Shown: positions 25,642-60,464, numbered from the stretch's first letter. The stretch is DNA of 64,000 nucleotides from an uncultured Clostridia bacterium (GCA_944391745.1 CALXUS010000001.1:81425-145424), one strand, 5' to 3'. Program-made: numbers and translations. The notes: generated from the letters alone by a model not told the origin.

Positions 25642-27645
25642 TTAATTAGGTATTATAAAAAAGCCTGCATGCATTACATCTCCGTTTTCAAGTACATATA
25701 AAACATTAGAACCATTATTTACAAATTTTATTATTTTTTGATTATATAGTGGATTATTTTCAACTTTATTTAAACAAACAGGTGTTAAAAGATTTGTTTT
25801 ATCTACACCGCTTCCAGCCTGACCATGATCATTGTCTCCCCATAAATAAACATTATTTTCTTCATCTAATGCTATAACTGAATTAGCTTCTCTAGATGAT
25901 GCTTCAATTTGTATTATCTTCTTATTATATAGAGTGGAATTTTTCTGTGCAGTTAAGCATATTGGCGATGATACATTTTCTAATTCGCCATCTGCCACTT
26001 GACCATCTGTATCACTTCCCCACATATATAAGTTATTTTCATTATCTAATACCATTATTGTCGCATTATTGTTATAAAATTCTGTTACTTTTTTATCTTT
26101 TAAAGGACTATTTTCTATATCATTTATACAAATTGGTATATTCCTATTTTGCATGGTTCCGTCTCCGACTTGGCCTTCATCATTCCTTCCCCATGAATAA
26201 ATTTTTCCGTCTTCGCTAATTGCATAAGCCGTTCCTAAGTCATATACATATATTTCTTTTATTTTTCTATCTTTTAACAAATTATTAGATATATCACTTA
26301 TGCATACAGGATATCTTCTATTTGTAAAAGTTCCATCTCCTAGTTGACCCTCGTCATTTAATCCCCAAGAATATACTCTTCCTTCATCATCTAATGCATA
26401 AATTGAACTATCTATTATATTATTAACATATACAAATTTTCTGTCTTTAAGTTCACTAAATAAGTCATTTATACATACAGGTAAATATTTATCTTTTGTT
26501 GTTCCATCTCCTAATTGTCCTTGGCGATTGTATCCCCATGAATATAGTTTTCCATTTTCATCTATAGCATAAGCATTTCCCCAATAATTATCTATAAAAA
26601 TATTTTTTATTACTTTATTATTTAATGCACTCCCTGGAATATCACTTATACATTTAGGAATATATCTATCACTTTGAGTTCCATCTCCTAAACTTCCTGA
26701 AGTATTACTTCCCCATGAATATACTTTTCCATCTTTATCTAATGCAATTATGTTATGATGACTTGGATAAATATTAGTTATATATATATTATTTAGTTCA
26801 CTATTTTCAATATCACTTATACATATTGGTAAATTTCTATTTTCTTTAGTCCCATCACCTATAATCCCGTATTCATTATTTCCAAATGAATATACTTTTC
26901 CTTCGTCATCTATTACAAATATTGCATTTTCTGTAAATACCTTTTCTACTTTCTTTCCATATAGAGCATTTCCTTCTGAGTCAGTTAAACAAGTTGGTAA
27001 AAAATTTGAATAATTTTCTTCGCCAGTCCAAGCATATATTTTATTTTCATTATCAATAAATCCACCATTAAAAATTTGTTTTATTCCTGAGTTTGAAACA
27101 TTTTTTATTGTACTTTTATCAAGTTTTATTAACTCACTATTTGTATTTAATTTTTCATTTGAAAAACCTACCGTTCCATCCATTGTCTCAACATATATCA
27201 ATCCATATAACATTCCTGCATCAATAACTTTTTTAGCATCTTCTTCTGTTAAATCACTTATTTGTTCTACTTCTCCATTTTGGTTAACCTTATACCTATG
27301 ATTTGTATCTTTAAACCATACTATTAAATCATTTCCTGAAGCAGTAACTTGTACATTATCTTTGCTTTTTTCTAGTTCTTCCTGCATTGCACCTGCTGAA
27401 ACAATATTTGAATAATCACTCATTTTACAAGAACTATAGGCTAATTGTATTGATTCAATTTCATTTGCTATAATAGTTTTTTCACGTGCTCCAATTGTTC
27501 TTGATATAATTCCATTTTCTCCAATAGTTAATGAAATAGCTACAGAAGCCAAAATTAATAATATTATAATTGTTACTACTAATGCAATTAATGTTATACC
27601 TTTAGCTTGTTTTAAAAATTTATTTTTTTCATATAAGTTACCCAT
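25642..27645 (-). CDS. RCC1-repeat (beta-propeller) protein with a type IV prepilin-like N-terminus (leader ...KQAKG, then ITLIALVV...)
   Basis: More than 7 repeats of YSWGxNxxGQLGDGT. ATG at 27645 has a perfect RBS aggag. GITLIA motif with Ala at +5. Confidence 0.7.
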   Translation of the reverse strand: MGNLYEKNKFLKQAKGITLIALVVTIIILLILASVAISLTIGENGIISRTIGAREKTIIANEIESIQLAYSSCKMSDYSNIVSAGAMQEELEKSKDNVQVTASGNDLIVWFKDTNHRYKVNQNGEVEQISDLTEEDAKKVIDAGMLYGLIYVETMDGTVGFSNEKLNTNSELIKLDKSTIKNVSNSGIKQIFNGGFIDNENKIYAWTGEENYSNFLPTCLTDSEGNALYGKKVEKVFTENAIFVIDDEGKVYSFGNNEYGIIGDGTKENRNLPICISDIENSELNNIYITNIYPSHHNIIALDKDGKVYSWGSNTSGSLGDGTQSDRYIPKCISDIPGSALNNKVIKNIFIDNYWGNAYAIDENGKLYSWGYNRQGQLGDGTTKDKYLPVCINDLFSELKDRKFVYVNNIIDSSIYALDDEGRVYSWGLNDEGQLGDGTFTNRRYPVCISDISNNLLKDRKIKEIYVYDLGTAYAISEDGKIYSWGRNDEGQVGDGTMQNRNIPICINDIENSPLKDKKVTEFYNNNATIMVLDNENNLYMWGSDTDGQVADGELENVSSPICLTAQKNSTLYNKKIIQIEASSREANSVIALDEENNVYLWGDNDHGQAGSGVDKTNLLTPVCLNKVENNPLYNQKIIKFVNNGSNVLYVLENGDVMHAGFFIIPN

Positions 27646-27709
27646 TACTTTAATTCTCCTTTGTTCGCTTAATATAGTCTTTTCATTATTATATATAAAA
27701 TATAATAAA

Positions 27710-29339
27710 CTATTCAAAATAGCCTATTTTTCTTTTGTAATCATCATAATCTCCAATATATGAAGTAGCCTTACCATTTTTAAATTCTACTACTTTATTT
27801 GCAAATTTATTTATAAAATATCTATCATGGCTTACAAATATAAGTGTACCATCAAAATCGCTTAAAGCCTCTTCTAATACTTCTTTAGTTGGAATATCTA
27901 TATGATTTGTTGGTTCATCTAAAATTAATGTATTTATTCTTTTTTGAAGTAATTCTGCTAGTTTTACTTTCATTCTTTCGCCACCTGATAAACTTCCCAC
28001 TTTTCTTATTACATCTTCTCTATAAAATTGAAAGTTTGCAAGTATTTGTCTAGCTTTTTGTTCATTTATTTCGGCTGCCATTTCAAAATATTCTAGTAGT
28101 GTCTGATTTTCTTTAGGAAAAGTTATTATTTGTGGTAAATACCCTATAATTACACTTGGTCCTATTTCAATATTTCCTTGTACTGGTAGTTCTTGAATTT
28201 TAAGTACAGACTTTACAAATGTTGATTTTCCGCTTCCATTATTGCCTATTATCGCAATTCTTTCCTTTGAGAAAATTTCTAAACTTATTTCATCTAAAAT
28301 CTTGTTGCCATCAGGTGCTTTTACTGATAAATTTTCCACATTAATTATTCTTTTACTTGATTTTCTTTCTTCTTTGAATTCTACATTAATTTTTTTATGT
28401 TCTTTAGGTTTGTTTACTGCTATCTTTTTTAGTCGGTCAATTTGCGTTTGAAGGCTATGAGCTCTGTCACATAAAGTTGAACTATTTGTTGCCATTCCTC
28501 TTTCTGCAAAATATTTCCTTTGCTCTTCAAGTCTTTTAATTATTGCCTGTTGATCTTTATAATTCTCCATCTGCTTTTCGAAATCTTTTTTCTTTTGTTC
28601 TAAATATTCAGAATAATTTGAATAATAAACTTTGCCAGTTCCATCATCTAAATCTAATATTTTGTTTGAAACTTTATCTAAAAAGTATCTATCATGTGAT
28701 ACAATAACTGATGCTCCTTTAAAAGATTTTATATAGTTTTCAAGCCATTCAATTCTTCCTATATCTAAATGATTAGTAGGTTCATCTAATAATATTAAAT
28801 CAGGTTTTTTTATAAGTATTTTAGCTAGTTGTATTAATGTTTTTTCTCCTCCACTTAAGTCATTATAACTTTGATTTAATATTTTCCTATCTATTTTTAG
28901 TCCTTCTATAACTGTATTTATATTTATATCAATATCATATCCTCCTTTTTCAGAGAATTTTTCTATTAATTTACAATATTTGTTCAATTTATTAGGATCT
29001 TCATTGTTTTCTAATTGTTTTTGTAATTTTTTTATTTGGTTTTCCATTTCTATTAAATCACTAAAACCGTCTTTTATTATTTCATAAGCTATTCTGTTAT
29101 CTATGATACTAGAACCAGTTTGATTTAAATAACCTACTTTAGCATCTTTCTTTATATTTACTTGTCCTGTATCGGCTTTTTCTATTCCTGCAATAATTTT
29201 CAGTAAAGTAGATTTTCCACATCCATTTGGACCTACTATTGAAATAGATTCTCCTTCATTTAATGAAAAAGATACATTTTCAAATAATTGTCCATAGCCG
29301 AAAATTTATCCCCAATTTATTTACATCTAGTATTATCAT
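27710..29339 (-). pseudogene. ABC-F family ATPase (two ABC cassettes), disrupted by a +1 frameshift about 13 codons into the gene
   Basis: The upstream frame encodes MIILDVNKLGINF. Deleting one C at about 29298-29300 joins it to GYGQLFENVSFSLNEGESISIVGPNGCGKSTLLKII..., in frame with the 27710..29047 ORF. Confidence 0.65.
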
Positions 29340-32368: not shown

Positions 32369-33070
32369 TTACATATCATCTTCATTTTCATTATTTTGAA
32401 TATTAGAATTGTTTTGATTGTCGTTCAAATCTTGATTTTGCTGTTTTTTCTTTTTAGATGTATTTTTCGTTGTGTTCTTATTTTCATCTTGAACTTTTTT
32501 TGAATTGTTTTCGTCTTTATATTCATTTTCTTCTTCTTTTAATACATCTGATTCTAATTTTTTATCATAGCAAATGTTATCACAATGACCACATTCACCA
32601 TCGCAATAATCATCCCAATCAAGTTCAATTTCTTTATGACATTTTGGACATTCTATAATATCTTTTAAATTTGCCTCCGGACCTATTACAAATTCATAAT
32701 TGCAATAAGGACATTTTATTTCAAAATCATAGTCATCATAACTGATATTTAATTCATTGTCATGCATTTGATCACCTATTTTGTCATAGATGTTCTCTTT
32801 ATCATCTTTCTCTTCATCTTCATCAATATAAATGTCAGCTTCTATTTTCTCTATAGACTTTTGAAGTTTTTCAACCTTATTGTATAAATCTTCATAAGCC
32901 CCATTATTAGTTTCTACATTTTTATTGTTCATGTCTATAAACATCATGCAAACTTCTAAGATTTTGTTTTTTGCAATTTCCAAATCCTTTGGATCTTTAA
33001 TTTCTTTTTCTAGTTCACCTAGAATTTTAGCAAATTTATCTCTTTTATCTATCATAGAATCTCCTTTCAC
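32369..33070 (-). CDS. Hypothetical acidic protein with double CxxC zinc-ribbon motifs and an N/Q/K-rich tail
   Basis: 233 aa. CPYC...CPKC...CDGECGHCDNIC. Confidence 0.5.
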   Translation of the reverse strand: MKGDSMIDKRDKFAKILGELEKEIKDPKDLEIAKNKILEVCMMFIDMNNKNVETNNGAYEDLYNKVEKLQKSIEKIEADIYIDEDEEKDDKENIYDKIGDQMHDNELNISYDDYDFEIKCPYCNYEFVIGPEANLKDIIECPKCHKEIELDWDDYCDGECGHCDNICYDKKLESDVLKEEENEYKDENNSKKVQDENKNTTKNTSKKKKQQNQDLNDNQNNSNIQNNENEDDM

Positions 33071-33073
33071 ATA

Positions 33074-33640
33074 CTAAATTCTTTCCATGTATTCACCAGT
33101 TCTAGTATCTACTCTGATTATATCTCCTATATTTACAAACATTGGAACTGTTAATTCATAACCATTTTCAAGTGTTGCTGGTTTTCCAGATGTTGTTGCT
33201 GTATTTCCAGAAAATCCTGGTTCTGTATATGTAACTTCTAATTCTACGAATATTGGTGGTTCTATTGAAAATACTTTTCCTTTATATGATAATACCTTTA
33301 CATTCATATTTTCCTTTAAGAACTTTAAGCTATCTCCTAATTGTTCTTTATTTAAAGGAATTTGTTCGTAAGTTTCGTTATCCATAAAGTAATATAATCC
33401 ACTGTCTTCATATAAGTATTGCATTTCTTTCTTTTCAATTTCTGCTGCTGAAAATTTCTCTGATGGGTTAAATGTTTTTTCTAGAACACTTCCTGTTATA
33501 ACATTTTTTATTTTTGTTCTAACGAATGCTGATCCTTTTCCTGGTTTTACGTGTTGAAATTCAACAACTCTATAAACATTTCCATCCATTTCAAATGTTG
33601 TTCCATTTCTAAAATCTCCTGCTGAATATACTGTTGCCAT
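33074..33640 (-). CDS. efp: Elongation factor P
   Basis: 188 aa, canonical EF-P. Confidence 0.95.
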
Positions 33641-33849
33641 TATTATTCCCCCTTAATAAAATTTTATTCATAAACATATAATTTATTTTACACTACTTTT
33701 GCCTAAAAATCAAGCTTTTATGTAAATTTATTCGTTATTATTATTTTTTATGCCATGCAAATGTTTTTATTGCATATCATAAAAATAAACCCTTATTATC
33801 ATTTTTTCTAATAACTAGGGTTCATTTACTATTATTTTTAACTAAGTTA

Positions 33850-34266
33850 TTATTTTTTATTTATATAACTTTCTAAAATATAAACTGCCGAAATAGTATC
33901 TACTATTTGTTTTTTCTTTTTATTGTTTATATTTAATAGATTCATTGTTTTATGGGCCTCTACTGTTGTTAATCTTTCATCAATCTTTACAATTTGAATT
34001 TTATTAAATCTAGATTTTAATTTATGTATGAATGCTTCAGTTTCTAGTGATCTTTGACTTTGCGTTCCATCCATATTTAAGGGATTACCTATTACAAATG
34101 TATCAATATTATATTGTTCAACTATTTCAGCTAAGCGTCTCAATATAATTTTATCATTTCCATTTGAATTAATAGTTTCTAATCCTTGTGCTGTTATGCC
34201 CAATTCATCTGTTATGGCAATACCAGTTCTTGATACTCCATAATCTATTCCTAATTTTCTACTCAT
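33850..34266 (-). CDS. ruvX: Holliday-junction resolvase-like RuvX/YqgF
   Basis: 138 aa. [16 protein letters not shown]. Confidence 0.9.
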
Positions 34267-34507
34267 CTATATATTCCTTAACCATTTTTTCTAATAATTC
34301 GTCTCTTTCGATTTGTCTAATTAAATTTCTAGCTCCTTTATGGCTAGTTATATAAGTTGGGTCTCCTGAAAGTATATATCCAACAATTTGATTTATTGGA
34401 TTATATCCTTTTTCTTTTAAAGCCTCATATACTTCTTTTAATATTTCTTTAGCTTTTGTGTTTTGCTCTTTTTCAACATCAAATCTCATTGTTTCATCCA
34501 TATTCAT
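34259..34507 (-). CDS. UPF0297 / IreB-family small regulatory protein
   Basis: 82 aa. Conserved upstream partner of ruvX. Confidence 0.8.
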
Positions 34508-34535
34508 AGAAAGAATCCTCCTTTTGTATAAAATT

Positions 34536-35627
34536 CTAAATAACTTTTATTGTATTTTCATTTGATGAATCTATGTATTGTTCTAGTTTTTTGAAAGCTC
34601 CATCTAAAGCTGTTCCTTTATAGTATGTTGAAATAACTACTCTTATTTTTGGACTTACTATAACCTCTTCTTCATCACTATGTATATAATCAGATTGAGC
34701 AGTTATATCTAAATTTTCCATTTTTGTTTTTAAATCATTCATAAATGTCATTACGCCATCTTTATCTGCTCCTGAAAATACAATTGCAAATTTTGGTCCC
34801 ATGTATCTAACAAATATATATTCTTTTGATAGATTATTTTTTACAAAATTTGAAATAGTAGTTATTGTAGCATCTCCTGTTTTTCTGCTAACTTGAGTAT
34901 TTATTTCTGGTAAATTAACTATTTTGAAAAGGCATATAGCAGAAGTTGTGTATTTATCTATTGTTTTCTTGCCTTCTCCATATAAATACTCTGCAGATTT
35001 TAAACCTGAATATAAATCATTTCTAACTATATTCTCTATAGTAGCCTGGTTTTCAATTGTTTTTAAAATAGTAACTATATTATTTCTTACTACTTCAAGA
35101 ATTGTAGTATCAATATGATCAAATTCATGTGGCATACTACCTTCAATAATCCAATATCCTATATATACATTATCTACATAAAGAGGAAAGAACATTGCAC
35201 ATTTTGCCCTTCCGAATTCCATTTTCTGATATGGTAGTTTTTCATTTTCATTTTCTACAGTAACATATTTAGGTGTAGCTGTTTTTATACTATCACTGAA
35301 AACAGGATCATTTTGTAAACTTTTAAGAGCATCCCAATGCTTTTTATCTACATTAGAGGCTTTTACAACATATTCAGCGCCATCAAATACTACTATGGTA
35401 GAGTATTTAATTGAATATTTGCTTATTAGTATATCATTTATTGTTTCAAGCTTTTCTTGAATTGTACTATTTTCACCTAATGTTTTCATAAATTCTTGTA
35501 AAACATTTAAACTTGTTATTCTTTGATTTAGGTTACTATATGTTTCTATTTTCTTGTGTACTGAATAGTTGTAAACAATTAATGTTAAAACAATAATAAC
35601 TAATACTGTTATAACACCTATTATCAC
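34536..35627 (-). CDS. N-terminally membrane-anchored protein, possibly with a degenerate GGDEF-like domain
   Basis: 363 aa. Single [13 protein letters not shown] resembles a degenerate GG(D/E)EF. Confidence 0.4.
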
Positions 35628-35647
35628 TATTTATCACCTCTTTATCT

Positions 35648-38600
35648 TTAATAGTTTGCTCTCATTTTATTTAAAGTTCCATTTACTCCTGATGAAAATT
35701 GTGTTTTTGATTGCTTTTTACTTTTTCCTCTAAATAATCCTCTTTTTTCCGCCTTTTCATAGTTTGGCGAATAATTATTATAATTACTTGATCCTGGTAA
35801 TAATGGATAAACCATACTTGCTAATTTTTCTAGACTATTTAAGAACTCCTGTGAATAACCATTTAATGAAACCTGACATAATGCTATAGCTTCCAAATAT
35901 CTTGCATAAGTCTGCATTTCAAATGGTATTGTTGTGTATTTTATATTATTAGGATCAAATAAGTCTCTTTGTAAAGTCATAGATGGTTCATTATATTTTG
36001 CCATTCCACCTAAAATCATTTTATTATTAACTAATTTTAGTTTCATTTCTTTGTTAATTACTACTCTTAATTTAGATTCATCTAAAGCATTTTTCATTTT
36101 TAATTCGCTTAAAAATTGTGTAAGTGGTTGAATTGTAAGCGCATCCATTGATTGTACTAAATATATTTCTGTAGCTTTAACAAAATAATTTATATCTGTA
36201 TTAAAATCACAATCTATTAATACTGCAGAAAAATTATTATCCAATGTTTGTAATACAGATTCAAAGTTTTCATCATCATTTATCTCTTCTGGAACTGATG
36301 TAAATACTGTTAAATTTTTATTTACTTGTACGCCTTCTGCATTTCCTCTAGCAAGATTACTTATACTTTGTCTTGCAAGATCCATTAATTTTTGATCATT
36401 ATCTGTAAACATATAATACGAATTCTTATTTTTTGTTAAATCAAGTATCGCTGTTTTTATACCTTTTTGAGATAAAAGCTCAGCTAAGTTATTTACGATA
36501 AATGATGTACCATTTTTTGTAGTTCCTACAAATGCAACAATTTTATTTTGTGCTATAAAATTACTTGGAATTACATTATTTCGTTGTCTTGTTCTAGTTA
36601 AATCTTGTGTTTCTCCTCCGACATTAAATAAATCATTGTTAAATTGTGGTGTTTGACTATAAGCCATTCCAAATCCATTTTGATTTTCACTTTCATTATT
36701 TACTTCTGGTGTGTAATTTTGTTGTGCATTATTAAATTGATTTTCATTATTTAATTCATTTCCATAAGGTAAATTTGCATCATTCTCATAAGGTGTTTGT
36801 TCTTTTTCATTTTCAAAAGATGTTGATTGAAAAGGATTTACATTATAAGAATCTGATTGCATTGTATTTACATCATAAGGATTTGATTGCATAGAACTAA
36901 CTTCATAAGGACTTGTTGGTTGATTATTATTTACTTCACTATGATTCATTTCGTTTGTTGCATTATTAAATGTATCATAAGGATTTACTGGCGAATTATT
37001 TAAGTCATTATTTATATAATTTTGTTGAGTTCCATTTACTGGATCTTGTTCTTGTATTGTACTTGATGTATTATCATCAGCCATTCCAAATAAGTTAAAA
37101 TCATCATTTGAATTTCCAGCTTGATTATTAGTATTATTATTTAATGTATTAGCTGTATTATTTATAGTATTTGTATCATGAGGATTTACTTGATTATTTT
37201 CAACATTTGGACTTACATTATTTGTTTCATATTGACTTGTTTGAGTTGGTTCATTTCCTAAATCAAATAAATTAAATGTATCATTATTTGATGTTTGTCC
37301 ATTTTGAATTTCAGTATTTTGACTATTTGCATTTGGAATTTCAACATTTTGAGCTGGTATATTTTCTGTAGTATTTAAAACATTTTGTGGCATTGTTTCC
37401 ACTGAAGTTGATGCATTTTCCAAATCGCTTGCAATAACATTTGTATTTTTTCTTGGTCTTCCTCTTCCTCTTTTTGGTTGCTGAGGAACGGCTTCTTCAT
37501 TTGTAACAATTTTTCTTGGTCTTCCTCTTTTTCTAGGTTGAGGTTCTACTACTGGGTTTTGTATAGTAGGTGCTTGACTTTCATTATTGTTATTTAGAGT
37601 TGTATTTTCACTTACCCCCATTGGTTCTACTTTGAACATATCTTGTGGTTGTGCATTATTCATTATATTATCTTGATATACACTTTGATTTTGCATTCCC
37701 ATTGGTTCTGGATTATATACTTCTTGTGGTTGTACATTATTCATTGTATTGTCTTGATATACATTTTGATTTTGCATTCCAACTGGTTCTGGATTGTATA
37801 CTTCTTGTGGTTGTACATTATTCATTGTATTATCTTGATATACATTTTGATTTTGCATTCCCATTGGTTCTGGGTTATATACTTCTTGTGGTTGTACATT
37901 ATTCATTGTATTATCTTGATATACACTTTGATTTTGCATTCCAACTGGTTCTGGATTGTATACTTCTTGTGGTTGTACATTATTCATTGTGTTATCTTGA
38001 TATACACTTTGATTTTGCATTCCCATTGGTTCTGGTTGATATATATTTTGTGAATTTGACATATTCATTGTTGGTTTTGAAAAATAGTTATTATTTGAAT
38101 TAATGCTAGTTTCTCCGTAAGAATTCAATGGCTGTATGTTGCTATTTTCTTGGTTATTATAATTATTATTCATTATATTTGAATTTCTATTATTATTTTG
38201 ATTAACCGCTGGTGCAACTGTTTGAGCAGTAGTTATATCCATTGTTGATGGTATAATAACTTGTCCTTTTATTGTTGGCTTTTCTATATCTACAGTTAAT
38301 ATGTCCCTCTTTGAAGAAGGCTTATTATTTGTTGGACTATAAGGTTTATATTGTCCATTTGAAAGCACTGTTCCTCCATTAACTAATTTTTGATATTTTT
38401 CTGATTTTTTTTCTAACACATTTTTTACATTGTTAGGTAAAAATTTAATGATTATTCTTAATTGTGTATCATTATATTGACTAGCTATACTGTCAAAACT
38501 TTCAACATACTTTTTCTCATTATTTCCTAATTTTTTATAATGTGATAATATATTTTTTATCTCATTTTCACTAACTTCTGATTCATTTCCTGGCTCATAA

Positions 38601-39067
38601 TTTACTTCATCTGAACCTATTTTATAGTAACTTTTTGCTTCTTTTTTGCTTCTAGGTTTATAAATCAAATTACATACAGTTTCAACATTTCTATCATTAC
38701 CTAATAAAGCATTATAAATACCTATTCCAAATAATTTAACTAGTAATTGATCTGATTTTGTTCTACGATCAGAACAAATTAAAATAATTGGAATATCTTC
38801 TCCTGTTGTTTTATAAGCTTCATCACTTATATTATCTAATTTATCAAATAAAAATTTATCTATAGAATCATAATTATTATTTGATATTGGTTCTAAATCT
38901 TCTCCTATTACTATTGCATCATAAGTTTTATCCTTTTGTAGTTCTTTTATTATTGCATTAAAGTAATAAACATTTTTGCTTGTTATTATCTCCTTATATT
39001 TTTCAGAATATTTTTTTATTATCAATGATGATTGATTATCATTACTTACTGCAAATAAAACTTTCAT
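35648..39067 (-). CDS. Giant (1139 aa) TadZ/CpaE-like protein: N-terminal receiver-like domain, a roughly 600-aa N/Q/P-rich low-complexity region with 29-aa tandem repeats and two AT-hook motifs (RGRPRK), and a C-terminal ParA/MinD-like ATPase domain with a deviant P-loop
   Basis: C-terminal IVAFVGTTKNGTSFIVNNLAELLSQKGIKTAILDL ... AVLIDCD. AT-hooks PRKRGRPRKIV and KRGRGRPRKN. Confidence 0.6.
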   Translation of the reverse strand: MKVLFAVSNDNQSSLIIKKYSEKYKEIITSKNVYYFNAIIKELQKDKTYDAIVIGEDLEPISNNNYDSIDKFLFDKLDNISDEAYKTTGEDIPIILICSDRRTKSDQLLVKLFGIGIYNALLGNDRNVETVCNLIYKPRSKKEAKSYYKIGSDEVNYEPGNESEVSENEIKNILSHYKKLGNNEKKYVESFDSIASQYNDTQLRIIIKFLPNNVKNVLEKKSEKYQKLVNGGTVLSNGQYKPYSPTNNKPSSKRDILTVDIEKPTIKGQVIIPSTMDITTAQTVAPAVNQNNNRNSNIMNNNYNNQENSNIQPLNSYGETSINSNNNYFSKPTMNMSNSQNIYQPEPMGMQNQSVYQDNTMNNVQPQEVYNPEPVGMQNQSVYQDNTMNNVQPQEVYNPEPMGMQNQNVYQDNTMNNVQPQEVYNPEPVGMQNQNVYQDNTMNNVQPQEVYNPEPMGMQNQSVYQDNIMNNAQPQDMFKVEPMGVSENTTLNNNNESQAPTIQNPVVEPQPRKRGRPRKIVTNEEAVPQQPKRGRGRPRKNTNVIASDLENASTSVETMPQNVLNTTENIPAQNVEIPNANSQNTEIQNGQTSNNDTFNLFDLGNEPTQTSQYETNNVSPNVENNQVNPHDTNTINNTANTLNNNTNNQAGNSNDDFNLFGMADDNTSSTIQEQDPVNGTQQNYINNDLNNSPVNPYDTFNNATNEMNHSEVNNNQPTSPYEVSSMQSNPYDVNTMQSDSYNVNPFQSTSFENEKEQTPYENDANLPYGNELNNENQFNNAQQNYTPEVNNESENQNGFGMAYSQTPQFNNDLFNVGGETQDLTRTRQRNNVIPSNFIAQNKIVAFVGTTKNGTSFIVNNLAELLSQKGIKTAILDLTKNKNSYYMFTDNDQKLMDLARQSISNLARGNAEGVQVNKNLTVFTSVPEEINDDENFESVLQTLDNNFSAVLIDCDFNTDINYFVKATEIYLVQSMDALTIQPLTQFLSELKMKNALDESKLRVVINKEMKLKLVNNKMILGGMAKYNEPSMTLQRDLFDPNNIKYTTIPFEMQTYARYLEAIALCQVSLNGYSQEFLNSLEKLASMVYPLLPGSSNYNNYSPNYEKAEKRGLFRGKSKKQSKTQFSSGVNGTLNKMRANY
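37590..38050. repeat. Intragenic 87-bp tandem DNA repeat (about 5 copies) encoding YNPEP(V/M)GMQNQ(S/N)VYQDNTMNNVQPQEV
   Basis: Direct near-identical 87-nt units are visible in the sequence. Confidence 0.8.
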
Positions 39068-39070
39068 TTG

Positions 39071-39481
39071 TTAACCCCTCCAACCTTTGACTACTATTGC
39101 GAAAATAAGTGGTAATACTTGACAAATAATTAACATAGTAACTATACCTATCATCGCGCCAAATCCTTTATCTCTTACATCTAATTTTCTGATACCTATA
39201 ACATATTGGTAGATTGCTGCTATTGCTATTCCTAAAAAAGCTACTGGTATACTAAATACTCTTACTTTATCTAGTATATATGCAACTAATCCATAGGTAG
39301 TACTTCCGTAAGCCTCATTGTAATCTTCTATTGATTGAAGCTCTTTGTCTTTTATTTCTACAAGTTGGCTTTTAGTTTCTTCTGATATAATTTCTCCTTC
39401 CACATTATTATTTGTAGCATAAACACAATTTATACCGATTATACAAATAATAACTGCAAAAGTCACAAGAACTTTTTTCAT
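39071..39481 (-). CDS. Small secreted/membrane protein (signal peptide plus C-terminal TM helices)
   Basis: 136 aa. Translationally coupled to the giant gene. Confidence 0.5.
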   Translation of the reverse strand: MKKVLVTFAVIICIIGINCVYATNNNVEGEIISEETKSQLVEIKDKELQSIEDYNEAYGSTTYGLVAYILDKVRVFSIPVAFLGIAIAAIYQYVIGIRKLDVRDKGFGAMIGIVTMLIICQVLPLIFAIVVKGWRG

Positions 39482-39576
39482 CTTTTTACTCCCTTCATTA
39501 TTATTGCTCTAATGCGATTTTCTATTAATCATTATATATAATAATACACTAATGCTCTTAAAATATCAAGTAAATT

Positions 39577-40815
39577 TTACAATTTATTGTATAAATAAGT
39601 CATCCACTTAAATACTGCATTTGCCCAATTTTTATCAGAAGCATATCTGGTATTTACTGCTGTTAAAGTTGCTCCTTCAAAATATGAACCTGTTGCTATT
39701 TCACCACCATAAATTGGTGTTCCTGGTGGGTTTAAATAATACTTAACAAAAACACGTGCTACTAAGTCTATTCCTTCAGAATAAGATTGAAATGTATTTG
39801 CACAACCAGAAGGATCTCTATCATAAGCTCCATAACCAAATAAGTTCTTTTTATTTTTTGATATTGATGATGTTCCCCATCCACTTTCATGAATTCCTAC
39901 TGCTGCAACAAATATACCATTAATATTATATTGCTGTTCTATGTAATAGAAATACTCTGCATTATCTGCAAATACATGATTAACATCATTAGGGTCATTT
40001 TCTAGAATTTGTTTAAATTGTTCTAATGTTAATCCACTTGGTTTATTTAATAACATACTGAATCCTAAATTTTGTGTAAGCTGTTCTCTAGTATATTGTA
40101 TGTTATTCTCATCTCCGTCTCCTGTACCATTTGGATTTACATATTCTAGATTTTCTGATTTTGCCCAACCTAGTTGATCATTATATGATACATAGTACCA
40201 ATTTCCTTGTTTTGCTTGTAAAATTACTAATTCTCCTTTATTTAAATTAACTATTTCGTTGGAATTATCATCTGGATCAGCTTTGATTGATAAAGTATTT
40301 GAAGTAACTTTTAGCTCATCCCCCACAACTGGGACATAGTTATTTGAATTTGCTGCAGTTCCAACTTGTACTATTTTATCTACTGAAGCTTTAGTTATTT
40401 GTGAAGATATCTGTACTGAAGAAATTAAATTTCCTCCTTCATAAACATTTTTTATTACTGCATTCTGTTTACCATCTACGCCTTCTTGTAATACTTGTAT
40501 TTTTCCTTTTGCAAGAGAATTATTTTCTATATATTGAGTAGTAAATTCTACGTCTATTTCTTGCGTCTCCATAGATTCAACCCTTGTAACTTTTGTATTA
40601 TTTTCTACAATATCATCCACATTTATTTTTTTTCTTTTATCTACAGGAGTAATTGGAATTTCCACTGCAATAACTTTTGATTGTTCATTATTTGATGCGT
40701 AAGATATATTTTTTGTAATATATATACCAAAAATAATAGCTATAACTATTGCTATGGCTATTATTAAAACTAATATATACATCCATAATTTCGACTTTTT
40801 TACCATAATATTCAC
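39577..40815 (-). CDS. Cell-wall hydrolase: TM anchor, G5 domain, SH3b-like domain, and a C-terminal GH73 N-acetylglucosaminidase domain
   Basis: G5 motif KGKIQVLQEGVDGKQ. GH73-like GIFVAAVGIHESGWGTS. Confidence 0.7.
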   Translation of the reverse strand: MNIMVKKSKLWMYILVLIIAIAIVIAIIFGIYITKNISYASNNEQSKVIAVEIPITPVDKRKKINVDDIVENNTKVTRVESMETQEIDVEFTTQYIENNSLAKGKIQVLQEGVDGKQNAVIKNVYEGGNLISSVQISSQITKASVDKIVQVGTAANSNNYVPVVGDELKVTSNTLSIKADPDDNSNEIVNLNKGELVILQAKQGNWYYVSYNDQLGWAKSENLEYVNPNGTGDGDENNIQYTREQLTQNLGFSMLLNKPSGLTLEQFKQILENDPNDVNHVFADNAEYFYYIEQQYNINGIFVAAVGIHESGWGTSSISKNKKNLFGYGAYDRDPSGCANTFQSYSEGIDLVARVFVKYYLNPPGTPIYGGEIATGSYFEGATLTAVNTRYASDKNWANAVFKWMTYLYNKL

Positions 40816-40915
40816 CTAATATTATTGTAATATTAAAGCACTTTTTTGTCAATTCATGTTTTAAAAATGTAATAATTAGTAAAAGTTTTAAATTATGGAT
40901 GTATTATAAATATTT

Positions 40916-41644
40916 TTATTCTACATCTTTAGATAATTGTTCTAATACATCTAACATTCGGTTCAAACCTGGGAATAATCCATCAATTAGATTGTCATCC
41001 ACATTAACCTTCCATAGAATTCCATCTCTAGTCACATTTAATATTACCTCGTTTTGTGTAGTTTCAACATTTTGCAAACTTTCTTCTAATAGTTGAAAAT
41101 ATTGTTCTTGAGAAATATTATCTTGTTGTTCAATTACTTTAGAAATTTTATCTATCCAATTTAATAAAACTTGTCTATAATCCTTATTTGTAATATCTAC
41201 TGTAACAGTTGCTACAGAATCTTGTATATTTTCATTTTTTATTTCCCATGATAAGTCTGAAAAAAATGCTTTTTCTAGTGTTGACATTTCACTACTATCA
41301 CTATTAAGCGAAGAATCTATTTCTGTTATTAAATTATTATAGTCGACATTTAAATTTGCTATAAATTTATTTCCATTTTTTAGGTTTGAAAGCATTAAAT
41401 TAACCGCAAACTTAGGTGTAATTGCATTATATAAAAATACCAATACTAATAAAATTAGTATTACAATTATAATTAGTGCTACAATTATTTTCTTTCCACT
41501 TTTTTCTTTTTTCACTTTTGCCTTTTGATTTTTATTTGATTTGTCAGTGTTTTTTTCTTTATTATCTTTTTTTAATTCTGACTTATTGCTTGGCTTTTGC
41601 ATCTTCTCATTTTTTCTTTTTGTTTCTTTCTTTTTTTCTTCCAT
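40916..41644 (-). CDS. Hypothetical membrane-anchored protein with a Lys-rich N-terminus
   Basis: 242 aa. Single TM after the basic N-terminus. Confidence 0.5.
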   Translation of the reverse strand: MEEKKKETKRKNEKMQKPSNKSELKKDNKEKNTDKSNKNQKAKVKKEKSGKKIIVALIIIVILILLVLVFLYNAITPKFAVNLMLSNLKNGNKFIANLNVDYNNLITEIDSSLNSDSSEMSTLEKAFFSDLSWEIKNENIQDSVATVTVDITNKDYRQVLLNWIDKISKVIEQQDNISQEQYFQLLEESLQNVETTQNEVILNVTRDGILWKVNVDDNLIDGLFPGLNRMLDVLEQLSKDVE

Positions 41645-41709
41645 ATTCTTACCTCATCATTTTTTATTTTATAATATACTATTAAAATTTTTATTTCAAG
41701 TATTTCAAT

Positions 41710-42258
41710 TTATTTATTTAATAATATTTTTATTGCTATTATTATTAATATTATTCCACCTAAGACCTGTGAAATTTTTCTATATTTTTCTCCAAAAACA
41801 TTTCCTATTTTTACCCCTAAAATGGATAAAGAAAAGGTTATTATTCCTATTGAGGTAATTGATATTAGTAATTTTTCTTTTAAACAAGCTATAGAAATTC
41901 CCACTGCTAATGCATCAATACTCGTTGCTAAAGCAAGAATACTCATTGTTTTAAAATCTACATTTTCATTTGAATCTTCTTCTTCATTTTTTATTGTTTC
42001 TTTAATCATATTAATTCCTATTGCAAATATAAGAAAAAAAGCTATATAATTAGCTATTTTTTCTATAGTTTTGTAAAAATGATTACCTAGTAAGTATCCT
42101 ATAACTGGCATTAATGCTTGGAAAATTCCAAAATATAAAGCAATAATTAATGCTTTTTTCCAATTCATCTTAGTCATAGATAAGCCTTTACATATTGATA
42201 CTGCAAAAGCATCCATGCCTAATCCAATACTCATAAATATAATTTCGGTAAATCCCAT
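41710..42258 (-). CDS. mntP: Manganese efflux pump MntP
   Basis: 182 aa. Duplicated DUF204 halves (GLGMDAFAVS / SIDALAVG). Confidence 0.85.
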   Translation of the reverse strand: MGFTEIIFMSIGLGMDAFAVSICKGLSMTKMNWKKALIIALYFGIFQALMPVIGYLLGNHFYKTIEKIANYIAFFLIFAIGINMIKETIKNEEEDSNENVDFKTMSILALATSIDALAVGISIACLKEKLLISITSIGIITFSLSILGVKIGNVFGEKYRKISQVLGGIILIIIAIKILLNK

Positions 42259-42352
42259 ATTATTTCTCCACTATTTCTAATATTTCTTTAGTGACTTACC
42301 TATTTATTCATTTAGTATTTTGAAAAATGACTATTAATTATTGCTTTTATTT

Positions 42353-43192
42353 TTAAAGAATTCCAAGTAATATAATGACAATTATTCCTAATGCTATTCT
42401 ATACCAGCCAAATACTTTGAAATCGTGTTTCTTTATATAACTCATTAAGAATTTGATTACAAAAATAGATACTAAAAATGCAACTATCATTCCTATTAAT
42501 AAAACAGCTAATTCCATTCCTGTAAAACTTAAACCAAATTTCAATATTTTTAATAAACTTGCTCCAAACATTACTGGTATTGCTAAGAAAAATGTATATT
42601 CTGCAGCTACTGTTCTAGAAATACCTATTAATAATGCTCCAATTATTGTTGCACCTGAACGAGATGTACCTGGAAATATTGCAGCAATTAATTGAAATAA
42701 ACCTATAATTAAGGCATCTTTATATGTTAATTTATTTATATCATCTACTCTAGGTTTCATATTTTTCTTTTTATTTTCTATGACGATAAATGCAATACCT
42801 ACTAAAATAAGCATTGTTGCTACTACATAAGAATTATATAAATATTCATTTAGTATATCATCAAATAACAAGCCAACAATTGCTGCAGGTATACATGCTA
42901 CTAAAATTTTTGCCCACAAAATTAATATATTCTTATCCCATACAATTTTTGATCCTCCATGCTTACTTTTATGCATTTTTAAAGGCCAAATATTTTTAAA
43001 ATATAATACAACAACGGCTAAAATTGCACCTAATTGTATTACTACTTCAAACATATCAAAAAAGCCTTCAGATAATCCTTCAAATTTCAAAAAGTTTTCT
43101 GCTAATATAAGGTGACCTGTGCTGCTTATAGGTAACCACTCTGTTATTCCTTCAATAATTCCATATATTATTGAGTATAAAATATTTAACAT
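42353..43192 (-). CDS. uppP: Undecaprenyl-diphosphatase
   Basis: 279 aa. EWLPISSTGHL motif. Confidence 0.9.
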   Translation of the reverse strand: MLNILYSIIYGIIEGITEWLPISSTGHLILAENFLKFEGLSEGFFDMFEVVIQLGAILAVVVLYFKNIWPLKMHKSKHGGSKIVWDKNILILWAKILVACIPAAIVGLLFDDILNEYLYNSYVVATMLILVGIAFIVIENKKKNMKPRVDDINKLTYKDALIIGLFQLIAAIFPGTSRSGATIIGALLIGISRTVAAEYTFFLAIPVMFGASLLKILKFGLSFTGMELAVLLIGMIVAFLVSIFVIKFLMSYIKKHDFKVFGWYRIALGIIVIILLGIL

Positions 43193-46941: not shown

Positions 46942-46985
46942 AAAAAAGCATATATTACTTTTAAAGTAATATATGCTTTTTTTAG
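46942..46985. terminator. Bidirectional terminator between murC and the transglutaminase-like gene
   Basis: 15-bp inverted repeat aaaagcatatattac/gtaatatatgctttt with flanking A- and T-runs. Confidence 0.6.
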
Positions 46986-48109
46986 TTTATTTTGTAATCA
47001 TCTTTAGATAATTCTGGATATATGAAATTTTGTCCTGTTCCAGATACATCACCGTCATTTTGATGATTTTTATTAAATGTATTTGCACCTTTCAAAAAAT
47101 AGTTATATTTATATGAACTATTCGAAATTGTATTGCTATTTCCACCAATTATAAGAGGATCATCCCAAGTTGCATCAATAGCATACCACTTTCCATTTTC
47201 CATTTTTACATAATTCCATGCATGCGCTTCTATATTACCATGTTCATCATAACCATTACCATAGACTAAGACACAAGGTATATTTAATTTATCTAATAAA
47301 TATTTTAAAGCTTCTGCATATCCTTCACAAACAACTTTTCTATTTATAAATGTTCCATATATATTATCATTATTTGCCGTATTATCATTATCATATTCAA
47401 CATTATCTACTAGCCAATCATGTACATATAAAATTTTCTGATATCTAGTTCCTTTTGCCTTAGATAAAATTTCATTAACTACTTCATCTATTTTTGTAAA
47501 TGCTTCGTTTATATCTTCCTCTGTATTAAAAGAAGAATTGTAATATTTTTTTCCTGTTTGAGGTCCTAAAGTATACTCATAAGATTTATAACTAAGTAAT
47601 GTTGTCGTTTTTGTTGAAATGGATAAATTATTAGTATCAACATAAAACAAATTTAAATTATCTAATGTAAGTGCATCCCATGCTGATTGAAAATAATTAC
47701 TATTTTCATCTCCGCCTAAATTTTTTACACTATCTCCGACTGAAGTTGGAAATTTTATTTCTTTAATTCCACTTTTAAGTGCATCTTCATTTTCTAAAAT
47801 AGTTGTATACATTATTTTAGCTGGTTCTTCCAACTGATTATAATAATATCTTAAAGCCTCATTTTCAGTATCTTCATATTCATCATTATAGTATGTTTCG
47901 TAATTTATTTTTTCTGCGTTAGCTTTTTGAGCAGACATTGATGCTATATAAATGCACCCTGCAAAAAGCATTACAATAATTAGTATTAATAATATAAGGC
48001 TTATACCCTTTTCTTTTTTTCTTAAGTTATTCATCAAATTCTCCATTGTGTTCATTCCTTTTTTATTGTTTATCACAAATATTATATTAAATTTTTTTTG
48101 AATTATCAA
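46982..48109 (-). CDS. Transglutaminase-like (Cys-His-Asp) domain protein, membrane-anchored
   Basis: VCEGYAEALKYLLDKLNIPC ... HAWNYVKMENGKWYAIDATWDD. Confidence 0.75.
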   Translation of the reverse strand: MIIQKKFNIIFVINNKKGMNTMENLMNNLRKKEKGISLILLILIIVMLFAGCIYIASMSAQKANAEKINYETYYNDEYEDTENEALRYYYNQLEEPAKIMYTTILENEDALKSGIKEIKFPTSVGDSVKNLGGDENSNYFQSAWDALTLDNLNLFYVDTNNLSISTKTTTLLSYKSYEYTLGPQTGKKYYNSSFNTEEDINEAFTKIDEVVNEILSKAKGTRYQKILYVHDWLVDNVEYDNDNTANNDNIYGTFINRKVVCEGYAEALKYLLDKLNIPCVLVYGNGYDEHGNIEAHAWNYVKMENGKWYAIDATWDDPLIIGGNSNTISNSSYKYNYFLKGANTFNKNHQNDGDVSGTGQNFIYPELSKDDYKIN

Positions 48110-48126: not shown

Positions 48127-49167
48127 TTATCTCATCATCATATCAGCAAAAATAGCATATCCTTCTGTTGGTGAATTTAATAATACATTTGTAATTGCAC
48201 CAATAAATTTATTGTTTTGAATAATTGGAGTTCCACTCATTCCAGGTATTATTCCTCCTGTTTTATTTATTAATTCTTCATCAGTAATTTCAATTAGCAT
48301 ACTTTTATTATCCTTCGAATTTTTATAAATTTTTTTAATCTTTATTTTATATTCAGAGACCTTTCCATTTTCTAATTCGCATAGTATTTTTGCATCACCT
48401 GTTGTTATTTCTTTTCTACTAGCAACTTCAACTTCTTTTTGTTTTATAGAGTTAATGAATTCAATATTTGTAGTAGTTCCATACACACCAATACCAGTAT
48501 TACTTTCTATAGTTCCTATTTTATATCCATTATCTATTATTCCCCTTATTTCTCCTACTCTACCTTTTACACCTTTTACTATAGATACTATTTGAGCAGT
48601 TACTAATTCTCCATTAGAAATGTTTAATAAATTTCCTGTATCTACATCTGTTATTCCATGTCCAAGTGCAGCAAAAGTTTTTGTTGCTTCCTCATAATAG
48701 GTCAAAGTTCCTATTCCAGCTGCTGCATCTCTTACCCATAAGCCTAACATGTAATCTTCATTTTTTCCTTTAATAGGCATTATATTTGTATAAATTAGCT
48801 CATTATTTCTTTCATATTTTATAGATATTTCTTGTCCATCTGAAGAATTCACTATATTTATTAATGTTTGTGTATTATTTATTTCCTGTCCATTAATTTC
48901 TTTTATCATATCTCCTTCTTTAATCCCAGAATTTTCATAAGGCTTATATTTATTTCCATCTATGCCATCAACCTCTGACATACCAACAACTAATACCCCA
49001 TTCGTATACAATTTTAATCCCACAGTTCTACCTATAGGATTTACATATCTATTTGTTCCTGTACTAACCGATTTTGCGTAAATATTGTATTGTATCATAG
49101 TAGTGTATATATACAAGCTTAAACAAACTATAATTAAAATAGTTGATATAATTTTATTTTTTTTCAT
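48127..49167 (-). CDS. spoIVB: Stage IV sporulation protein B (SpoIVB, S55 peptidase with PDZ domain)
   Basis: 346 aa. PDZ region plus GMSGTPIIQNNKFIGAITNV catalytic motif. Confidence 0.88.
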   Translation of the reverse strand: MKKNKIISTILIIVCLSLYIYTTMIQYNIYAKSVSTGTNRYVNPIGRTVGLKLYTNGVLVVGMSEVDGIDGNKYKPYENSGIKEGDMIKEINGQEINNTQTLINIVNSSDGQEISIKYERNNELIYTNIMPIKGKNEDYMLGLWVRDAAAGIGTLTYYEEATKTFAALGHGITDVDTGNLLNISNGELVTAQIVSIVKGVKGRVGEIRGIIDNGYKIGTIESNTGIGVYGTTTNIEFINSIKQKEVEVASRKEITTGDAKILCELENGKVSEYKIKIKKIYKNSKDNKSMLIEITDEELINKTGGIIPGMSGTPIIQNNKFIGAITNVLLNSPTEGYAIFADMMMR

Positions 49168-51141: not shown

Positions 51142-51220
51142 TTTTATCCTTTCTCAAATTATTTTCATAATTTGACAAAATGGAGTAGATTAATAACCTA
51201 CCCCATTTCTTTACTTTAGT

Positions 51221-51745
51221 CTATTTTCCATTTACACTTACAATTCCGCTATGTTGAGCAGTTATGCTTGCAGTATTATTTCCAGTTACACGGTAGACAA
51301 AATCTTTTAATATAGTTCCAATAGTTCTGTTTGTATTTTTTACACTAACTGTTACCATATCACCTTGTTTTAAGTACATTGCACCTGCTTCAGAATTTAC
51401 TTCATCTAATATTTGGGTAGTGTACTTACTATAATAATAGTTTTCTCCAACTTTTGTGTATTCAGCCTCTGTAACCTTTTTTCCTGGGTTATCATCTAAT
51501 ACTTGAACTTCCATTTCAACATTATAACTATTTCCTGTTGAAGACAATATTTGAACAAAATTATCATAGTTATCTTGTGTTATTTGCCCTGTAGATCTAA
51601 TTTCATCAACAAAATCTGTTGTTGCTGCATCAACAGCTTGAGTTGTAATATCATCAGTTCTTTCAGAGGTTGACATTAGTGGAAATATGAACATTAATAT
51701 AGCAGCTAAAAATATTGCTACCACCGTTATAACTGTATCGCTCAT
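51221..51745 (-). CDS. Small N-terminally anchored protein (174 aa); pilin/pseudopilin-like candidate
   Basis: N-terminal hydrophobic helix, then a soluble domain. Operon context. Confidence 0.5.
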   Translation of the reverse strand: MSDTVITVVAIFLAAILMFIFPLMSTSERTDDITTQAVDAATTDFVDEIRSTGQITQDNYDNFVQILSSTGNSYNVEMEVQVLDDNPGKKVTEAEYTKVGENYYYSKYTTQILDEVNSEAGAMYLKQGDMVTVSVKNTNRTIGTILKDFVYRVTGNNTASITAQHSGIVSVNGK

Positions 51746-51762
51746 AACTACCTCCTTTAAAT

Positions 51763-52644: not shown

Positions 52645-52667
52645 ATTTACCCTTTCTTTATATTAAA

Positions 52668-53180: not shown

Positions 53181-53293
53181 AAAATAATTCCTCCTTTGAT
53201 TTTTAATTTTTATATAATATTTAGTTTGCGTAACTAAATCTAAAAACATATAAATTTATCTATTGTTTACTTAACTTCATTTGAGTTTGCATT

Positions 53294-53737: not shown

Positions 53738-53795
53738 TTTTTCCTCTTCTGAATTATAACATTTATTATTTTTTTATGCAATAATTTTTTACATT

Positions 53796-54359: not shown

Positions 54360-54382
54360 TAGCTCACCTCATTTCTATAAAT

Positions 54383-54856: not shown

Positions 54857-54876
54857 TCTTTTACCTCTATTAATTA

Positions 54877-56955: not shown

Positions 56956-56977
56956 TTAAAGCTCCCCTCCTTTTTTA

Positions 56978-58882: not shown

Positions 58883-58897
58883 AATTTGCTCCTTTCT

Positions 58898-59737: not shown

Positions 59738-59751
59738 TTTTTATCCTTTCA

Positions 59752-60432: not shown

Positions 60433-60464
60433 AATTAATTTCCTTTCTATATCTTTAGTTTAAA

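Follow-up and report, generated by a model that had tools for sequence, protein, structure and literature searches.

A TANB77 Clostridia Protein Family with TadZ/CpaE-Type Architecture and AT-Hooks, Encoded outside the Pilus Locus

RESULTS

The gene, its integrity, and its family

The DNA analyzed here is a stretch of 64,000 nucleotides (nt) from an uncultured Clostridia bacterium (GCA_944391745.1, CALXUS010000001.1:81425-145424), referred to below as the window. The gene under study is the open reading frame (ORF) at 35648..39067 on the minus strand, which begins with ATG and encodes a protein of 1139 amino acids (aa). From the N terminus, the protein is composed of a receiver-like (REC) domain, a helical bundle, a disordered linker carrying two AT-hooks, a ParA/MinD-like domain and a C-terminal tail. 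The original prediction, made by a model from the sequence, had called this 1139-aa ORF an ATPase with the domain architecture of the pilus-localization proteins TadZ and CpaE; the ORF list contains the same frame, and the folds predicted by AlphaFold2 (AF2) and compared with Foldseek bear out that architecture. All features of the gene and its neighbors given below are on the minus strand unless stated otherwise.

An ORF of this size with a repetitive middle could be an artefact, that is, two genes joined by a sequencing or assembly error (a possibility that the prediction itself had named) or a decaying pseudogene stuffed with low-complexity sequence. Public protein calls give some color to this, being nearly all truncated: among the best 120 matches to the C-terminal domain, none is longer than 538 aa, and runs of N lie inside the gene in loci L002 (8229-9756), L086 and L087. 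However, of 82 loci from different species in which both domains were found, 79 carry the gene as a single unbroken ORF, 715-1208 aa long (median, 832), and these, together with the window gene, make up the 80 intact TANB77-type orthologues used throughout. The ORF is likewise continuous in eight independent assemblies of the same species, the flanks of which are 99.7-100% identical to the window. Moreover, clear constraint is visible in the two domains, in the hooks and in the tail. The fused-gene reading was rejected on the strength of this continuity across species and across same-species assemblies, and the chance that the gene is any kind of artefact is, in our judgment, practically nil. 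The near-universal truncation of public calls follows instead from assemblies, which often break within the linker, and from gene callers, which restart inside its repetitive sequence. Thus the gene is real and intact, and it encodes a large, lineage-specific protein of the TANB77 uncultured gut Clostridia.

When 1.84 billion representative proteins were searched with a profile, only 424 relatives were returned at E<0.001, from which we conclude that the family is sharply isolated from ordinary ParA/MinD proteins. All 87 full-length representatives, ranging from 553 to 1434 aa, have the pair of N-terminal and C-terminal domains. In a scan of one genome per species, at least 555 species carry the family, all of them represented by metagenome-assembled genomes of uncultured gut Clostridia, including Clostridium sp. 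CAG:508; CAG-508 counts among the major families of TANB77 (PMC11680825). A second, sister subfamily is larger, and the 115 new proteins among its best 120 matches have a median length of 581 aa. The family, which is undescribed until now, is one of TadZ/CpaE-type architecture encoded by orphan genes in uncultured gut Clostridia.

The C-terminal domain and tail

The ParA/MinD-fold domain occupies aa 842-1086 (35810..36544). AF2 modeled it from an alignment of 66 sequences with a predicted local distance difference test score (pLDDT) of 82.5 and a predicted template modeling score (pTM) of 0.78. Foldseek assigned the model, with probability 1.0, to the ParA/MinD fold. Its best match was the Chlorobium ParA-family ATPase 3ea0 (E 9e-9), followed by further matches to MinD (4v02, 4v03, 1hyq and 1g3q), ParA2, BcsQ (6yb5, 6yay and 6ybb, at ranks 5-9), the Eubacterium rectale TadZ 3fkq (E 3e-7), FlhG and Soj. 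The domain that had been described as ParA/MinD-like from the sequence does, then, score as that fold. Comparisons of sequence were less productive. In the window protein, the Pfam matches to MipZ (14 bits) and CbiA (13.8 bits) are both below cutoff, and CbiA is found, again below threshold, in 42 of 66 family members. NCBIfam had nothing for the protein, a search of PDB sequences with both domains gave nothing useful, and the family profile had no match at E<=10 among all PDB sequences.

The P-loop, GTTKNGTS at aa 848-855 (36503..36526), is deviant, as had been noted, and it is so throughout the family. The family-wide pattern is GxxKxGT[ST], which takes the form GT[ST]KNGTS in the subfamily of the window protein and GAPK[VAS]GTT in the sister subfamily. 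When the loop is aligned on its G-x-[ST] end, both the signature lysine and the canonical lysine of ParA/MinD proteins are seen to be replaced, and the lysine that is conserved, K851, stands at position 4. In domain numbering, G19, T20, K22, N23, G24 and T25 are invariant columns, as are D47, D123 and D125 at the switch I and Walker B positions. Because the P-loop and these three aspartates are invariant, this is more likely a retained ligand site than a decayed one. There is precedent in E. rectale TadZ, which, as reported on the basis of Xu et al. 2012, has lost both lysines, yet binds ATP, dimerizes and has some ATPase activity (PMC10482377, PMC13170226).

The C-terminal tail (35651..35749) has two parts: a basic-hydrophobic patch, EKRGLFRGKSKK, at aa 1107-1118 and a terminal, putatively amphipathic helix, FSSGVNGTLNKMRANY, at aa 1124-1139. 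In an alignment of the tails of the 80 orthologues, the patch is a feature of the window's clade. The terminus is general: beyond an unstructured, variable stretch, every one of the 80 closes with F[ST]xx[MV]NxTL[NDE][KQR]M[KR]xx[YF], which AF2 models as a helix. The hydrophobic moment of the tail has a median of 0.49 in the orthologues (z 2.3 versus shuffled sequences); that of the window gene's own tail is 0.39 (z 1.1). In the sister subfamily, the tail is [KR][KR]G[LIF]F[GRK]. Judged by these patterns, the tail is a candidate membrane- or partner-binding element.

The N-terminal pseudo-receiver and the helical bundle

The N-terminal region was modeled by AF2 with a pLDDT of 80 as a receiver domain with a (beta-alpha)5 fold (aa 1-147; 38627..39067) followed by a five-helix bundle (aa 167-230; 38378..38569), which has many invariant columns. 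Foldseek matched the region to DesR, the receiver of ComE and other response-regulator receivers, and to the N-terminal domains of CpaE (4n0p, 4myr and 4dad), which rank among the top matches, in agreement with the receiver-like domain of the original prediction. Going by the AF2 strand positions, the hallmarks of receivers are altered: Glu56, at the end of beta3, stands in place of the phospho-acceptor Asp and is invariant, in the distant subfamily as well; beta1 is followed by VSN(D/E) rather than by an acidic pair; beta4 is followed by C-S; and there is no Lys after beta5. The Pfam scan of the protein gave no Response_reg match, and a comparison of the N-terminal family alignment with E. 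coli CheY by hhalign was not significant. Since this comparison failed, the receiver assignment comes solely from the predicted structure, and we infer the residue correspondence to receivers from it. As modeled, the N-terminal domain is a non-phosphorylatable pseudo-receiver. It is also the most conserved part of the protein, with a median identity of 70%.

The bundle was considered, as a candidate only, for a helix-turn-helix (HTH) of the LuxR type. Foldseek aligns full-length NarL-family regulators to the region that contains it, at a root-mean-square deviation of 11-16 Å and with no improvement in TM-score.

The linker and its AT-hooks

Between the bundle and the ParA/MinD-like domain lies a disordered, acidic linker rich in Asn, Gln and Pro (aa 236-832; 36572..38362). 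It comprises 597 aa, with 21% N, 11% Q, 8% P and a net charge of -40, and so matches the low-complexity region of about 600 residues that had been reported. The description of this region as a huge insert holds for its size but not for its being a unique insertion. Across the 80 orthologues, the linker varies from 193 to 676 aa, and the window protein is simply at the upper end of a hypervariable range. Composition depends on the clade, the short linkers being rich in E, K and P and those of the window's clade in N and Q.

Part of the length of the linker comes from a tandem repeat at 37641..38043, which Tandem Repeats Finder resolves as an 81-nt (27-aa) unit in 5.0 copies (93% matches, score 699); beyond the five full copies is a sixth, which is degenerate. 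The original prediction had the copy number right but gave the unit as 29 aa; a period of 81 nt means 27 aa, and the peptide quoted in the prediction itself has 27 residues. It had also proposed checking whether the length of the insert varies between strains, and this it does. Strains of the same species have proteins of 1112, 1139 and 1166 aa, corresponding to 4, 5 and 6 full units, with a step of exactly one 27-aa unit; these counts are subject to the collapse of repeats that can occur in short-read assemblies. We infer that the N/Q-rich repeats are a slippage-prone spacer rather than a functional domain. The linkers of other clades (L002, 8229-8750; P0353; P0379) hold quite different repeats, such as charged repeats of the RKEQERIARERAEAEAR type or acidic LPGLDDDEEDDETE repeats; repeat expansion in the linker is thus recurrent and clade-specific. 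Two antisense ORFs of 136 and 152 aa inside the repeat, at 37643-38053 and 37645-38103 on the plus strand, are by-products of its periodicity and not genes.

Two AT-hooks follow the repeats: PRKRGRPRKIV at aa 511-521 (37505..37537) and KRGRGRPRKN at aa 532-541 (37445..37474). Each is an RGRP core flanked by basic residues, as in AT-hooks of the HMGA type. In a protein of this composition, 0.0013 RGRP cores would be expected by chance, and the core was seen in 22 of 20,000 shuffled sequences. Both motifs had been read correctly from the sequence, and at least two RGRP cores are present in every one of the 80 intact TANB77-type orthologues, with the consensus K-[RK]-G-R-G-R-P-[RK]-K and, most commonly, a hook-to-hook spacing of 21 aa. 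The Pfam AT_hook model (PF02178) matches 14 of 66 relatives, with a best E of 6e-5. The sister subfamily is without the core, which was found in 0 of the 115 new proteins among its best 120 matches, and for this reason we regard the hooks and the long linker as a derived gain of the TANB77-type subfamily.

Downstream of the hooks, at least one of two short linear motifs, x-N-L-F-[DGE]-[LM]-[GAD] and a repeated [IL]-L-P-G-[FL]-E, is found in 77 of the 80 orthologues. The window protein has two of the NLF type, NLFDLG in an acidic context at aa 599-604 (37256..37273) and NLFGMA at aa 658-663 (37079..37096), and none of the LPGF type. The NLF motif was considered as resembling a beta-clamp-binding motif, and the LPGF motif as resembling the C-terminal peptide of FtsZ, each as a candidate only. 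The order of modules in the linker is conserved and HMGA-like: two AT-hooks, then acidic short motifs (NLFxLG, LPGFE).

Given this arrangement, one might see the protein as an architectural chromatin or transcription factor akin to HMGA or CarD, with its functional core in the AT-hooks and the acidic region and a purely regulatory part for the folded domains. In HMGA proteins, and in the HMGA-like C-terminal part of Myxococcus CarD, AT-hooks do adjoin an acidic region, a likeness that is consistent with such a role, and the linker has no invariant elements other than its hooks. Nevertheless, the sister proteins, none of which has hooks, retain the two folded domains as well as tail and synteny; the most conserved part of the protein is its N-terminal domain; and neither Pfam nor Foldseek detected an HTH or a sigma-interaction domain. 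We consider this reading very unlikely.

Gene neighborhood

Synteny was counted over 83 related loci, with four distant relatives examined separately. The gene directly upstream, at 39071..39481, encodes a 136-aa membrane protein and is present in that position in all 83. By hydropathy, this protein has a signal or transmembrane (TM) segment at residues 1-23 and a TM hairpin (73-97 and 107-133) with a short basic loop. The upstream ORF ends in GGAGGGGTTAA, followed by caaATG, and the junction as a whole reads GGAGGGGTTAAcaaATG; only 3 nt separate the stop codon from the ATG, and the Shine-Dalgarno sequence is contained in the final codons of that upstream ORF. The translational coupling to a small membrane protein that had been suggested for this junction is therefore well founded.

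Directly downstream, at 34536..35627, is a gene for a 363-aa protein with a degenerate GGDEF domain, identified by Pfam (GGDEF, 27 bits) and by alignment to WspR and DosC. The GGDEF motif is replaced by MGPKF in 47 of 47 matches, the RxxD I-site is present in 0 of 47, and an N-terminal hydrophobic, TM-like segment was seen by eye in the sequence. The gene is found downstream in 81 of the 83 loci and is absent from some distant relatives. Beyond it, in the same orientation, are the genes for IreB (34259-34507) and RuvX (33850-34266), each present in 77 of the 83 loci and in all four distant relatives. On the other side, a gene for a peptidoglycan hydrolase with G5, SH3_3 and Glucosaminidase domains (Pfam; 39577..40815) lies upstream in 54 of the 83 loci. 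The best promoter-like site, TTGACA-17-TACAAT (11 of 12 matches), is at 40852-40824, before this glucosaminidase gene, which is likely the first gene of the transcription unit; no terminator-like site was found within 33000-42500.

In the four distant relatives, the order is small upstream ORF, gene, (degenerate GGDEF gene), IreB and RuvX, with DUF1292 next in three of them. The upstream ORF is homologous by sequence to the 136-aa protein in one of the four, L094; in the three others, an ORF of 106-108 aa in that place is known by position alone. No ParB-like, minC or minE neighbor and no cellulose synthase was found in the loci examined. Upstream of the gene, synteny extends past about 41-42 kb only in the closest relatives.

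The frequent presence of a degenerate GGDEF gene suggests a different kind of system, a regulatory module like that of BcsQ and BcsE, in which the MinD-like protein with its degenerate REC would work together with the degenerate GGDEF membrane protein on an envelope enzyme or a secretion step, and DNA binding would be secondary. In its list of parts (a MinD-like domain, a degenerate REC, a degenerate GGDEF and a small partner), the system runs parallel to BcsQ, BcsE and BcsR; the C-terminal domain has BcsQ high among its structural matches; and the neighbors include wall-related genes, those for IreB and the G5-SH3-glucosaminidase. On the other hand, the GGDEF protein is without the I-site that BcsE uses for cyclic di-GMP, its gene is missing from some distant relatives, no glycosyltransferase or synthase is conserved nearby, and it would remain unexplained why two AT-hooks are so strictly conserved. 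On balance, we think a module of this kind unlikely, and we extend the same doubt to the targets that it might have, of which the co-transcribed peptidoglycan hydrolase and IreB-linked wall synthesis are examples.

The wider window holds housekeeping genes, among them those for RecG, EF-P, BacA, MntP, SpoVG, a Mur ligase and SpoIVB. Almost all of its long ORFs are on the minus strand, and the GC skew is negative in each 2-kb bin (cumulative, -6.1), so that the window probably lies within one replichore, with its genes co-oriented with replication. Directly downstream of efp, a 233-aa protein (32369-33070, minus strand) has CxxC pairs, zinc-ribbon-like, and a low-complexity tail rich in N, D, E and K; it has no Pfam match and is found in 18 of the 83 related loci. 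A 691-aa protein (25642-27717, minus strand), encoded just downstream of an ABC-F-type ATPase gene, has an RCC1-repeat or RCC1-like domain (Pfam E 3e-68). Beside SpoIVB (48127-49167) is a 375-aa protein (46982-48109, minus strand), the C-terminal half of which matches the NCBIfam MAG6410 family transglutaminase-related lipoprotein at E 1e-30, far below the equivalog cutoff. In the locus of one distant relative, L097, a capsule module of Wzz, a CpsD-like ParA-type kinase and CpsB (4511-6758) lies 3-5 kb upstream of the REC-ParA-like gene, a placement that is probably coincidental.

The Tad-like pilus cluster

The original prediction had suggested that the gene may be linked to a Tad-like machine at 49-63 kb. 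There is indeed a Tad-like cluster of twelve genes at 49240-61550 (minus strand), possibly extending to 62793. Its ORFs have 361, 226, 279, 634, 692, 157, 187, 147, 193, 293, 174 and 633 aa and include a CpaB-like protein (361 aa), two short ParA-like ORFs, a TM-anchored T2SSE-type ATPase that is CpaF-like (634 aa; 56978-58882), a fused TadC/TadB-like protein (692 aa), six small pilin-like proteins, three of which have the N-terminal sequence MENASKALIIAG in common, and a 633-aa protein. By order and size, the cluster corresponds gene for gene to the published TANB77-exclusive pilus cluster, proteins 927-938, which have 358, 231, 280, 640, 693, 165, 170, 143, 146, 237, 178 and 621 aa (PMC11680825). 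The correspondence also marks the window as TANB77 DNA. That cluster was reported in 122 of 129 TANB77 species, its proteins being essentially exclusive to the order, and its proteins 928 and 929 were assigned as TadZ-like and CpaE-like by structural homology (PMC11680825). These two correspond to the window ORFs at 59752-60432 (226 aa) and 58898-59737 (279 aa). Given those assignments, the pilus machine already has ParA-like components of its own. They have degenerate P-loops, IGFVGVNDKKD and ITFVSEDLKET, and no receiver domain. When the C-terminal family profile was compared with them by hhalign, the 226-aa ORF showed only a weak, collinear match (E 0.025, probability 2%) and the 279-aa ORF showed none; consequently, we do not regard either as a close paralogue of the gene under study.

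Could the gene nonetheless encode the full-architecture TadZ/CpaE of the TANB77 pilus, one that localizes or forms a ring with the CpaF-like ATPase, with AT-hooks coupling the machine to the nucleoid or the pole? Its atypical REC, lysine-less ParA fold and putatively amphipathic tail correspond to all three of the reported hallmarks of CpaE and TadZ (PMC13170226), and the ParA-like ORFs of the cluster are too short for a REC domain (PMC11680825). In addition, both the pilus cluster and the family (at least 555 species) are near-universal in TANB77, and in the window the two are 10 kb apart. This proximity, however, is not general: the 10 kb around the gene are free of Tad proteins in all 83 related loci and in the four distant relatives, and the break in upstream synteny falls between the gene and the cluster. 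The distant relatives keep the context of small ORF, IreB and RuvX without Tad genes, whereas the pilus proteins are, as reported, all but confined to TANB77. Furthermore, tadZ genes are normally inside tad loci (PMC6668835), and here the locus has TadZ-like and CpaE-like genes already, whereas the gene under study is tied to ireB-ruvX and to the gene for the small membrane protein. A functional connection with the Tad-like machine is therefore unsupported, and a pilus role of this sort has, in our estimation, only a small chance of being correct.

DISCUSSION

Any account of the protein has to accommodate the two folds, a deviant P-loop under constraint, a tail and AT-hooks that are both conserved, the small membrane protein as invariant partner, and an operon with a flavor of wall and division. 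The reading that we favor, and which we hold tentatively, is that the protein may be a flexible chromosome-to-membrane tether or positioning hub acting in the context of the cell envelope or division, that is, a membrane-docking, nucleotide-dimerizing scaffold with nucleoid contact through the AT-hooks. By analogy with TadZ/CpaE and MinD, the C-terminal domain would bind nucleotide and form a sandwich dimer, which would dock on the cytoplasmic membrane via the tail and the membrane partner proteins. The pseudo-receiver domains would make higher-order or partner contacts, and the AT-hooks would hold the AT-rich nucleoid of this genome, which has 28% GC. On such a scheme, the scaffold would be the older core, to which DNA tethering was added in TANB77. 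This reading draws support from the neighbors: the small membrane protein at every locus counted, the degenerate GGDEF protein at nearly every one, IreB and RuvX, and, less regularly, the peptidoglycan hydrolase.

Several points weigh against this proposal. Nucleotide binding, dimerization, membrane binding and DNA binding are all drawn from motifs and analogy, and every member of the family comes from an uncultured organism. The ireB-ruvX synteny may reflect a conserved gene neighborhood and not a common function. For the window protein, the Pfam AT_hook score is 16 bits, below the cutoff of 17.4. The sister subfamily works without AT-hooks, from which it follows that the core function of the family would be that of a membrane-associated scaffold and not DNA contact. 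Finally, the family profile reaches no solved ParA/MinD or TadZ by sequence, and for that reason TadZ itself is only a candidate closest relative among the ParA-like clades.

More doubtful still is a specific form of the tether proposal, in which TANB77 would have a new chromosome-to-membrane tether or a positioning system resembling nucleoid occlusion, built from a TadZ-derived, lysine-less dimerizer, a membrane tail and a captured HMGA-like AT-hook module on a disordered linker of 200-700 aa that grows by repeat expansion, and acting with the small membrane protein and the dead GGDEF protein of the wall and division operon. If this were true, it would be the first ParA/MinD-family protein to touch DNA by AT-hooks and not by the surface of an ATP-bound dimer. 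The tether mechanism in general, if it holds, would show how a ParA/MinD scaffold of the pilus-organizer type can find new use outside the pilus locus and acquire DNA contact by eukaryote-style AT-hooks.

An abundant order of Clostridia in the gut of humans and animals, TANB77 has never been cultured, its cell biology is almost unknown, and it has been linked to the response to cancer immunotherapy (PMC11680825). The protein described here is one of its near-universal lineage-specific genes. With a linker that is hypervariable and a gene that assemblies and gene callers break, the family has probably been overlooked in similarity-based surveys, and its systematic truncation in protein databases is a warning for annotation. 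In practical terms, the 81-nt repeat is a strain-level length marker.

As for known systems, the closest in architecture are TadZ and CpaE. These are reported to combine an atypical receiver, a ParA/MinD fold in which the Walker A motif has lost its customary lysines, and an amphipathic tail at the C terminus (PMC13170226; PMC10482377, after Xu 2012), and CpaE is described as associating with the membrane via its C-terminal amphipathic helix (PMC13170226). The protein studied here resembles them in its pseudo-receiver, its lysine-less ParA/MinD fold and, putatively, its conserved tail, and 3fkq, 4n0p, 4myr and 4dad are among its structural matches. It differs in being encoded outside tad loci with other partner genes; in having a disordered linker of 193-676 aa, AT-hooks, a five-helix bundle after the REC domain and the P-loop GxxKxGT[ST]; and in that the family profile detects no sequence similarity to solved TadZ in the PDB.

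With MinD the protein has in common the ParA/MinD fold. In the sister subfamily, there is also a tail of the KKGLFG type, which we take to resemble the membrane-targeting sequence of MinD. In contrast to MinD, the studied protein has no KGGxGK[ST] motif and no minC or minE neighbors, and it has a REC domain, a linker and AT-hooks in addition. It differs from ParA and Soj in that no parB-like gene is adjacent and in that the P-loop is without both lysines. BcsQ-BcsE-BcsR offers a MinD-like fold with degenerate REC and GGDEF modules and a small partner; here, however, the REC is fused to the MinD-like domain, and the degenerate GGDEF is a separate protein with a TM-like segment and no I-site, in a setting without cellulose synthase.

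Literature searches on AT-hooks with ParA or MinD, or on AT-hooks in Clostridia, returned nothing relevant, and we know of no described ParA/MinD-family protein that has AT-hooks. We likewise found no earlier report, for a protein of this family, of a giant repeat-expanding disordered linker or of a helical bundle after the REC. For the hooks themselves, the comparison is with HMGA and CarD, in which, as in the studied protein, cores of the type K/R-G-R-G-R-P-R/K-K stand beside an acidic region; the studied protein differs in having only two hooks, placed between two folded bacterial domains. In Noc of Bacillus subtilis, a protein with a ParB-like fold, DNA binding and amphipathic-helix membrane binding are found together. 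The studied protein has an unrelated fold and is without specific binding sites, and it would be a functional analogue of Noc only by the proposed logic, that of joining the chromosome to the membrane.

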